Below, piece after piece: positions 35,497 to 37,866 of a DNA stretch of 64,000 bases (its first letter is position 1; each line of letters opens with the position of its first letter). The notes below the pieces were generated by a model. That model had not been told where the DNA came from and did not search any database. It was given only the letters and a program-made list of their open reading frames with translations. Both the position numbers and the translations under genes were made by a program. The stretch covers positions 12,517 to 76,516 of the forward strand of contig JAEOTE010000025.1 in the NCBI GenBank assembly GCA_016839945.1, read 5' to 3'. The DNA comes from Candidatus Heimdallarchaeota archaeon (GTDB lineage: Archaea; Asgardarchaeota; Heimdallarchaeia; Heimdallarchaeales; Heimdallarchaeaceae).

Positions 35497-36543
35497 TTAC
35501 TTCTTTGAAGAGGATTTCTTTGTTTTAGTAGATGATTTAGTCTTAGTTGTCGTTTTTGATTTTGGTTTTGTTTCAGTTTTCTTCTTTGCAGTTGTCTTAG
35601 GTTTGGTTGTAGTCTTGGGTTTTGGTTTGGTTGTAGTCTTAGGTTTTGGTTTTGCTACAGCTTTAGGTTTAGGTTTGGTTGTAGTCTTGGGTTTAGGTTT
35701 GGTTGTAGTCTTGGGTTTTGGTTTAGTTGTAGTCTTGGGTTTTGGTTTAGTTGTAGTCTTGGGTTTTGGTTTAGTTGTAGTCTTAGGTTTTGGTTTTGCT
35801 TCAGCTTTAGGTTTAGGTTTAGCTTCTACCTTGGTTTTTGGCTTAGCTTCTACTTTGGTTTTTGGCTTAACTTCTACCTTAGGTTTAGGTTTAGCTTCTA
35901 CTTTGGTTTTTGGCTTTTTCACAACCTTCTTTTCTCTTTTAGGAACAATATCTGAAAGTCTAAGTCTGGAAGTTGATTTTATTACTACACGATAATAAGA
36001 TCCTGATTCTCCCATAAGTGGATTTCTTATAATTTTTATAACATCTCCAGGTTTTGCTTGTATCGCTTTAACAGCAGGATCTGTTTCCAATACTTTTGGA
36101 ATTTGATGTTTTTCAATCTGATATTGTTTTAAGAAAGTATTAATCTCTCTGGAATTTAATCTCAAGTGCTGCGGTACATGTTCATGATCAAAAATATTAA
36201 ACAGAGGATTTGTACTGCTAATAATTTCAATTCCTAGCTTAACTGATTCTTTCTTTGCATAATGAGTCAAGGGAGCTTCTGCAATTAATAATGCATTATC
36301 AATTTCATCTTCTTCTTGAAGTTTTCCTAAAATTCTGATTGTTTTTACTCCAATTTGGGGATTTTTAGGAAATCTTGCAATAACATTTGCTTTTCCACCA
36401 TCTTCAACAGTCATTAGACCGTAGACATCAAGATAATCATCATCTTCTTTAGTCTTATCAATTTTAAAGCCTCGAAACTCAAGAATTTCTTTGACTCCCT
36501 TAACAATTCTTTTTTCTTTAGCTTGTTGTTCTTTGGATACCAA
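35497..36543 (-). CDS. rpoH: RNA polymerase subunit Rpo5/Rpb5 with eukaryote-like N-terminal jaw domain and Lys/Pro/Thr repeat tail
   Basis: Core [13 protein letters not shown]...[26 protein letters not shown]...YYRVV; about 110-aa N-terminal domain with RGF and [13 protein letters not shown]; TTG start with GAGGT SD. Confidence 0.92.
35605..35916 (-). repeat. 13 tandem 24-bp coding repeats (KPKPKTTT / KPKTKVEA octapeptides)
   Basis: Counted in the translation: 5 KPK(T/P)K(V/A)E(A/V), 5 KPKPKTTT, 1 KPKPKAVA, 2 KPKPKTTT. Confidence 0.95.
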
Positions 36544-36605
36544 GAGAGTTACCTCGCCATCCCTTTTTTTCTATGAATTTAAAATTTTTTGACAAGTGAG
36601 AGCTT

Positions 36606-36971
36606 TCACTTTTCTTTTTCTTCTTCTTTTTTCGATTTTATTCGGATGTAGTAAGAACCGTCCTTATTTCTTGCAATGATTGGGTCATCATCATTAGATT
36701 CAACAATTAATTTATCAACGTCTACTTCAAAAACACCTTCTTTTGTCAAACGAATAGCTTCTAATCCCTCTTGAATGTCAGTATCTTTTATTTCCCTATC
36801 TATAATAAGATCTAATTCGTGTTCTACCCTCTCATCACCTGAAGGTTCTCTGAATGTTTTAAATTTAAAAGATCCACAATATGGACAACCATTAACAATT
36901 ATTTCTGTGGATAATGCTAATTCTTTCTCGCAAATCGCACATATTGTTTTCTTTTTGGTTTGTTCTGACAT
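36606..36971 (-). CDS. oapC: OapC/ArvC (DUF2072) Zn-ribbon protein
   Basis: CAIC..IIVNGCPYCGSFKF, EAIRL...GVFEVDVDKL, DGSYYI. Confidence 0.8.
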   Translation of the reverse strand: MSEQTKKKTICAICEKELALSTEIIVNGCPYCGSFKFKTFREPSGDERVEHELDLIIDREIKDTDIQEGLEAIRLTKEGVFEVDVDKLIVESNDDDPIIARNKDGSYYIRIKSKKEEEKEK

Positions 36972-37011: not shown

Positions 37012-37866
37012 TTACTCCATTTTAATGCTTGAATTATATAGAAATTTTTCATTATATCCACAATTATTACATCCTTTTTCCTGAAGATCTTCAATCATTT
37101 TGTAATCCCCACCTTCACCAATATAATATATTTCGCCACATTCACACAAGTAAGGATAAGGAAGCACATTGCTTTCTCTATAATACAATGGACCAAAATA
37201 ATGATCTGAAATTGTTTCCTTCGAATCTGGTTTAGCTTGTAGTATATATAAATCCGAACTTTTTCTGTCTAAAGGTGTCTTAACATCGTACTTATTAAAA
37301 TTAGGGAGAACTTCTATTAACTCAAGTTTCATCTTATCTATCATTTTCTGAATTAACTCTTTTTTTTCTTCCTCAATATCAAAAGAGAAAAATATTTGAG
37401 CTTTATCATCTTTTTTTGCACATTGAACAGCTCTTGACAGACCTAGTTCTAATCCTTCTTTTGTCATGGATGGTTCAATGAAAATATAATCAAACTGATT
37501 CTTCAATACGTTTATCATACGTATTCTGATGTCATGATTGATATATCGAATTGTACGTATTTTATGTTTAAATTTCATTTTAAATACGATCTCAGGCACT
37601 CTCTTATCAATGTCTAGAACAGCTAAATCCTTTGGCTTTGACATTATTCCTATACTTAGTGCAGTAAGATCCATATCACCAAGTAAGATAACTCGTTTTC
37701 CATCATAATCTTCTGGATTAACAAGTAGAGATCTCTGTAAGCTTGTTTTTTCTGTTATATAATACTGATCGAGTTCCTGATTAGGCCCCCCCCTATAATT
37801 CTTTAGTATGCTATAAGCATCAGATATTTTTTGTTTAAGTTCTCCTTCTAAAGAATGGATTGTCAT
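37012..37866 (-). CDS. Branched-chain polyamine synthase (DUF43/BpsA)-like protein
   Basis: LDQYYIT, GKRVILLGDMDLTAL, VLDIDKR, HDIR, FDYIFIEP, LSRA, FNKY; C-terminal Cys pairs. Confidence 0.68.
   Translation of the reverse strand: MTIHSLEGELKQKISDAYSILKNYRGGPNQELDQYYITEKTSLQRSLLVNPEDYDGKRVILLGDMDLTALSIGIMSKPKDLAVLDIDKRVPEIVFKMKFKHKIRTIRYINHDIRIRMINVLKNQFDYIFIEPSMTKEGLELGLSRAVQCAKKDDKAQIFFSFDIEEEKKELIQKMIDKMKLELIEVLPNFNKYDVKTPLDRKSSDLYILQAKPDSKETISDHYFGPLYYRESNVLPYPYLCECGEIYYIGEGGDYKMIEDLQEKGCNNCGYNEKFLYNSSIKME

Follow-up and report, generated by a model that had tools for sequence, protein, structure and literature searches.

A lysine-rich repeat tail on the RNA polymerase subunit Rpo5 in a clade of Heimdallarchaeaceae

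The RNA polymerase subunit Rpo5 of Candidatus Heimdallarchaeota archaeon (assembly GCA_016839945.1) ends in a disordered, strongly basic tail built largely from lysine-rich octapeptide repeats, and sequence comparison indicates that such a tail is conserved on Rpo5 across a clade of 26 species. By analogy with known lysine tails, we lean towards the view that it serves as a sequence-non-specific polycationic tether for nucleic acid, likeliest double-stranded DNA (dsDNA), on the cell's single Rpo5. The window analyzed here is a 64,000-nucleotide stretch of contig JAEOTE010000025.1, and positions in the rpo5 locus are given in its coordinates. The complete rpo5 (rpoH/Rpb5) coding sequence occupies 35497..36543 on the (−) strand and specifies 348 aa, from a TTG start to a TAA stop. 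Translation from this TTG gives the N-terminus MVSKEQ, the same as the start of its homologues. Inspection of the sequence revealed GAGGT 8–12 nt upstream of the start and a candidate TATA-like box, TTTTAAAT, at 36577..36584 (−), 34–41 nt upstream of the TTG and within the 62-nt gap that follows an oapC-like gene. The rpo5 gene lies between this oapC-like gene and cofD, with rpoB elsewhere, on contig C3. The OapC-like gene (E 5e-11; 36606–36971, −) is immediately upstream of rpo5, and upstream of it is a gene for a BpsA-like branched-chain polyamine synthase (E 7e-28; 37012–37866, −).

The first-pass annotation, made from the sequence alone, had called the product an RNA polymerase subunit, and profile searches bear this out. 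Pfam Rpb5_C (PF01191) matched aa 115–187 over its full profile (1–73) with an E-value of 2.3e-22, and the genome, 3.0 Mb in size and 88% complete, gave no other Rpb5_C match. The NCBIfam RpoH model matched with E 1.8e-23 and 82.1 bits, against a cut-off of 83, and Pfam also returned weak Mrr_cat and NA-iREase1 matches. Among PDB sequences, the best phmmer matches were human, yeast and plant Rpb5, headed by human RPB5 (aa 22–175 against residues 39–197, E 1e-18). An AlphaFold2 (AF2) model built from 55 homologues was confident over residues 1–190 (pLDDT about 95), and its Foldseek alignments with eukaryotic Rpb5 chains spanned about 200 columns at TM-scores of 0.63–0.74, while archaeal subunit H matched just the last 75 residues. 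On the strength of this model, we are confident that residues 1–187 adopt a two-domain, eukaryote-type Rpb5 fold. It comprises an N-terminal “jaw” domain (aa 1–110; 36214..36543, −), a eukaryote-type Rpb5 N-domain of restriction-endonuclease-like fold, and a C-terminal assembly domain (aa 115–187; 35983..36201, −) common to ordinary archaeal subunit H. By its sequence matches, then, the protein belongs to the Rpb5 family in the long, jaw-plus-assembly form, and is probably the cell's single Rpo5 subunit.

Eukaryotic Rpb5 (RPABC1/POLR2E), a subunit common to Pol I, II and III, has the same jaw-plus-assembly two-domain architecture as this Rpo5. The eukaryotic Rpb5 chains in the PDB, however, are 205–230 aa long and align with the core up to the last few residues of the chain, which leaves no room for a tail, whereas here a linker and 160 disordered residues follow the core. 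The long form of Rpo5 was present in 80 of the 83 genomes of the class, which contradicts a 2012 statement that the Rpb5 N-domain occurs in no archaeon (PMC3479171).

Past the Rpb5 core, residues 188–348 form a tail of 161 aa. It is anchored by a family-conserved linker, IKS(T/S/A)SRLRL(S/T)(D/E) (aa 188–199; 35947..35982, −; AF2 pLDDT 58–69), and continues with a basic, non-repeat lead-in recognized from the sequence (aa 200–209; 35917..35946, −). In the assembled sequence, thirteen in-frame 24-nt, octapeptide repeats then follow, of KPKTKVEA type and afterwards of KPKPKTTT type (aa 210–313; 35605..35916, −), and the protein closes with a degenerate K/T/S-rich segment ending in KTKKSSSKK (aa 314–348; 35500..35604, −), ahead of the stop codon at 35497–35499. 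Tandem Repeats Finder reported a 24-nt period with 12.5 copies (35614–35913, score 217) and super-periods of 72 nt and 48 nt with scores up to 362. Reading the codons, we counted five octapeptides of the form KPK(T/P)K(V/A)E(A/V) and eight of the KPKPKTTT type, one of which reads KPKPKAVA; the first three units are KPKTKVEA and KPKPKAVA is the final one. Copies differ synonymously (AAA/AAG, CCA/CCT/CCC, ACT/ACC). The first-pass description of thirteen in-frame octapeptides with synonymous variation and a K/T/S-rich end was thus correct in every particular.

The tail contains 62 K+R against 8 D+E residues (59 Lys, 35 Thr, 26 Pro, 9 Ser, 3 Arg and 8 acidic); that is, it is 37% K, 22% T and 16% P, with a net charge of +54 and a lysine at every second or third residue. 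Its GC content is 35%, compared with 32% for the genome. It has no N, F or Y and hardly any I, all of them common residues in this proteome. This excess of GC over the genome, together with the missing residues of AT-rich codons, argues that the tail is not a product of mutational drift. In the AF2 model it has no secondary structure (pLDDT 46–69). Pfam and PDB searches with the tail alone found no domain and returned compositional matches only: the K/A/P tail of mammalian eL29, Trypan_PARP, and HC2 below cut-off. The tail of one relative matched Pfam HC2 below cut-off (E 5e-8), a similarity that we read as compositional. The tail is therefore coding, disordered and strongly basic, and by these searches it belongs to no family.

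We compared Rpo5 across the genus, family and class. A long Rpo5 is encoded by all 31 species genomes of the family, and the tail is in frame in 30 of 30 family loci. Among the genus's 24 other species genomes, every full-length Rpo5 (23/23) carries a K-rich repeat tail, the 24th being a short partial match. In the sister genus, KAKPKTTA repeats were found in both genomes, in each case running off the end of a contig. Maximum-likelihood analysis of the Rpo5 core recovered the tailed clade of two genera as monophyletic, with support of 92/92. Elsewhere in the family the extension differs by genus: in one, the same linker leads into a basic patch and then a 40%-acidic tail; a second has an acidic tail of 33 residues, seen in two closed genomes; and a third ends in a mixed tail of 24 residues. 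The linker itself (IKS-x-SRLRL) is found in all genera of the family, including the acidic-tailed ones, and is absent outside it. Other families of the class are without the tail; in three of them, the Rpo5 open frames are mostly 181–205 aa, with a few reaching 268. In an HMMER search, long K-rich repeat tails were confined to this group among the best 150 representatives. The database relatives of Rpo5 are labelled Heimdallarchaeaceae or Heimdallarchaeota, and one of their 90% clusters includes OLS30650.1 of MAG AB_125. Separately, Rpo5 matches from two families of this order fall in frames of mostly 430–500 aa (G042:C216:42069-42623 and G043:C64:7552-8121); in one such protein of 481 aa (P0064), the Rpo5 core lies at residues 256–433, giving it a large N-terminal extension.

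Within the clade, the repeats themselves turn over quickly. Repeat units vary by species (for example, KPKKTPSKTAA), and the closest relative, with a 94% identical core, has KPKTTT hexapeptides versus the KPKPKTTT octapeptides seen here. Between strains with cores of at least 99.5% identity, the array changes by whole repeat units, such that Rpo5 lengths among near-identical strains run 268/280/292, 295/304/321, 285/312 and 270/308 residues; this variation in copy number points to weak constraint on tail length. Across the 18 complete tails of the genus, length ranges over 81–160 residues and net charge from +20 to +54, while Thr (7–32%), Pro (3–16%) and Ala (5–24%) vary freely; among the features that we measured, lysine content alone is constant (30–41%). 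One NCBI protein of the genus (P0032) has a frame-shifted tail of QNQKQHQVRQP repeats, which is probably a sequencing or assembly frameshift within the array. We propose that the array turns over by replication slippage and unequal exchange, with selection acting on the reading frame, the length range and the density of lysines and not on the repeat sequence.

We also asked how unusual such a tail is in this proteome. Stop-to-stop open reading frames (ORFs) of at least 60 aa (8039 in all) were scanned in 40-residue windows for a Lys content and a P+T+A+S content of 30% or more each, together with no more than 15% acidic residues. Only 7 of the 8039 contained a K-rich stretch, the longest being that of Rpo5. 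Among the 1978 ORFs of at least 200 aa, the last 100 residues of Rpo5 are both the most Lys-rich (39%) and the most cationic (+38); the proteome median for Lys in the C-terminal 100 residues is 9%, and the 99.9th percentile is 28%. In this genome, K-rich tails as a lineage-wide habit can thus be set aside, and the prospect that similar tails are appended indiscriminately to unrelated proteins did not materialize. The comparison with related Rpo5 proteins that had been suggested along with it found the tail conserved within the two-genus clade.

Three of the six other K-rich ORFs encode DNA-handling proteins, namely an HhH protein, a giant Topo VI-B/HhH protein and an RFC large subunit; the remaining three are a weak gelsolin-like protein, a repeat protein and a probable non-gene. 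The HhH protein (L031; G000:C68:5108-5875, +) is 255 aa long and combines an HhH_5 domain (E 1e-16) with a linker of the KPKPKPKPKPKVKV type and, at the C-terminus, a weak L35Ae-like domain (E 7e-3). The giant protein is a 4174-aa frame (L034; G000:C89:115125-127649, −) with an N-terminal Topo VI-B region (GHKL plus transducer, E 2e-54), then about 3500 residues of HhH, RAD51D_N and RNAP alpha-CTD-like repeats, and a K-rich C-terminus; an Alba gene (C89:113369-113557) is located just upstream. The gelsolin-like protein (L032; G000:C89:97090-97815, +; E 1.5e-3) has a linker, KPKPKPKAEPKPKPKAEP, much like the Rpo5 repeat unit.

The instability of the array raises the alternative that the tail is a largely neutral, slippage-driven expansion of low complexity at a permissive C-terminus, with no specific function. 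Whole-unit copy-number changes between near-identical strains, the turnover of repeat units among species and the frame-shifted database variant are all in keeping with this explanation, as is the fact that other genera manage with 24–33 residues. However, every full-length Rpo5 gene obtained from the remaining genomes of the two genera (25 of 25) has a tail, its lysine density stays within narrow limits and it is in frame at every one of the 30 family loci; moreover, its composition opposes the AT bias of the genome, and Rpo5 is the single extreme of the proteome. We therefore judge a neutral origin to be rather improbable.

The functional reading that we favor is that of the nucleic acid tether. 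Cross-links join subunit H and Rpb5 to the downstream DNA between +5 and +20 (PMC2847245), and the Rpb5 N-domain has been called a “guard rail” for entering DNA (PMC3479171). Because Rpo5/Rpb5 lies at the downstream-DNA jaw, dsDNA entering or flanking the polymerase would be the likeliest target of the tail. A tether placed there might raise the general affinity of the polymerase for its AT-rich template, and the higher affinity could in turn favor retention, one-dimensional search and processivity. We infer both the DNA binding and the effect on transcription by analogy. Since sister genera with a near-identical core bear acidic or mixed tails, DNA binding can be neither the ancestral role of the extension nor one common to all its forms. 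A different electrostatic role, in which the tail neutralizes an acidic N-terminal extension of the neighbouring subunit Rpo6, was considered and rejected: Rpo6 is about 100 aa long, near neutral, and alike in tailed and untailed genera.

Several known systems resemble the tail. The Sulfolobales polymerase has a subunit, Rpo13, that in Sulfolobus sits where the eukaryotic Rpb5 N-terminal domain sits; its disordered, Lys-rich C-tail (11 K in the last 22 residues) is required for its dsDNA binding, which is lost when the tail is deleted (PMC3479171). Like the tailed Rpo5, Rpo13 thus places a Lys-rich disordered tail at the downstream-DNA side of the enzyme, on a subunit lodged against Rpo5, and by this analogy we regard its tail as the closest functional precedent on an archaeal polymerase. 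Unlike the tail described here, that of Rpo13 is about 20 residues long and non-repetitive; the two are non-homologous, and Rpo13 occupies the place of the jaw domain. The Rpo13 core (PF12136, a helix-turn-helix) had no match in this genome, while control searches matched in Sulfolobus. In Streptomyces TopA, C-terminal lysine repeats stabilize the enzyme-DNA complex and confer processivity (PMC5714199). Actinobacterial TopA shares with Rpo5 a lineage-specific lysine repeat array on the C-terminus of a conserved DNA enzyme, but it is a different enzyme from another domain of life, with no sequence relationship. The C-terminal domain of histone H1 and the bacterial H1-like proteins (Chlamydia Hc2 and the tails of actinobacterial HupB) are, like the Rpo5 tail, K/A/P/T-rich, disordered, repetitive and strongly basic. 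A linker-histone winged-helix domain (PF00538) was found neither in Rpo5 nor anywhere in the genome. The (S/T)PxK motif typical of H1 C-terminal domains has a count of zero in the tail of this Rpo5 and of 2–7 in 12 of the 18 complete tails of the genus. Both the H1-like composition and the DNA-tethering role first put forward for the tail fit this evidence, the latter at the level of analogy.

The same polycationic, disordered chemistry would also suit a tail that binds RNA, or one that drives clustering or condensation of the polymerase with nucleic acid, with no tethering to template DNA. At about 160 residues, the tail could probably reach any face of the enzyme. On the other hand, nothing favors RNA above DNA, and Rpo5 is on the DNA entry side; we consider this explanation fairly unlikely and retain the DNA tether as the preferred one.

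We view with greater doubt the idea that the Thr-rich array is a regulated platform, phosphorylated or otherwise modified, that recruits factors during the transcription cycle in the manner of the Pol II C-terminal domain (CTD). The tail does offer 35 Thr and 9 Ser, and like the Rpb1 CTD it is a disordered tandem-repeat appendage of a polymerase subunit. Several relatives carry 4–8 TPxK/TPSK-type motifs per tail, resembling proline-directed kinase and SPKK sites, and in the genus 12 of the 18 complete tails have 2–8 Ser/Thr-Pro sites. However, a motif count found no [ST]P motif in the tail of this Rpo5, the repeat unit is not kept even at 94% core identity, and Thr falls to 7% in some species, with Ala in its place. 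In contrast to the Rpb1 CTD, moreover, the tail has no cross-species consensus, is cationic where the CTD is almost neutral and turns acidic on phosphorylation, and sits on a different subunit, opposite the RNA exit side. A phospho-regulated CTD analogue, as had been suggested from the sequence alone, is hence difficult to reconcile with a tail in which the repeat units are unconserved and only lysine is held constant.

A role in displacing histones, also raised by the first-pass annotation, meets an obstacle of its own. Searches of this genome with the histone-fold profiles PF00808 and PF00125, and a tblastn search with the histone of the closest relative, gave no match, so that histone displacement would have no substrate here. 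Histone-fold genes were found in 3 of the 30 other genomes of the family (hence in 3 of 31 overall) and, family by family, in 1/1, 1/3 and 1/12 genomes elsewhere in the order; two closed genomes are among those with no histone match. By comparison, histones occur in 22/22, 2/2 and 12/12 genomes of three further families in the class, often in 2–11 copies. This pattern suggests that canonical histones have been lost in this order. The genome encodes Alba. Histone matches are likewise missing from the untailed genera of the family, so the loss of histones does not by itself predict where the tail occurs.

A 76.5-kb contig encloses the whole array, and no exact self-repeat within it exceeds 59 nt, which puts it within reach of ordinary short-read assembly. 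The tail frame is continuous from the conserved Rpo5 core to a K/S-rich end resembling the TKKSSTKK end of the closest relative. An antisense ORF (35603–35995, +) is likewise stop-free, as is the antisense frame of the array in 22 of 24 relatives; it was rejected as a gene, since it encodes G/L/V/F repeats only and does not run past the array, and it is probably open because the sense codons are AAR, CCN, ACN and GCN. Although repeats do break assemblies (8 of the 30 family loci are cut off by a contig end within the array, and one contains an N gap at that place), we find it scarcely credible that the repeat is non-coding, collapsed or chimeric or that the antisense ORF is the real gene, given the placement and short self-repeats of the array, the frame joining the conserved core to a conserved end, and the complete tails in independent assemblies of 18 species.

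A search of the literature on Rpb5/Rpo5 in Asgard and Heimdall archaea and on lysine-rich Asgard proteins found no description of the tail, and tailed Rpo5 sequences, public since the AB_125 genome, have been annotated merely as “subunit H”. Disordered lysine tails that tether DNA enzymes are already known; such a tail on Rpo5 is new. A broader interpretation, possible although on the unlikely side, is that the charged appendage of the jaw is a tunable module for engaging the template or chromatin, and that a functional polymerase tail thus arose independently in archaea, within an order largely without canonical histones. In one clade, made up of two genera with 26 species genomes, the module would be polycationic and H1-like; sister genera would carry an acidic and possibly DNA-mimicking version of it on the same linker. 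Ideas about the tail are testable with recombinant protein and with hybrid archaeal polymerases, in which Rpb5 is already able to replace subunit H. A conserved but fast-evolving H1-like tail would constitute a natural experiment in how a disordered, charged appendage may tune the contact between a polymerase and its template, and the charge-reversed tails of the sister genera strengthen its value as one.
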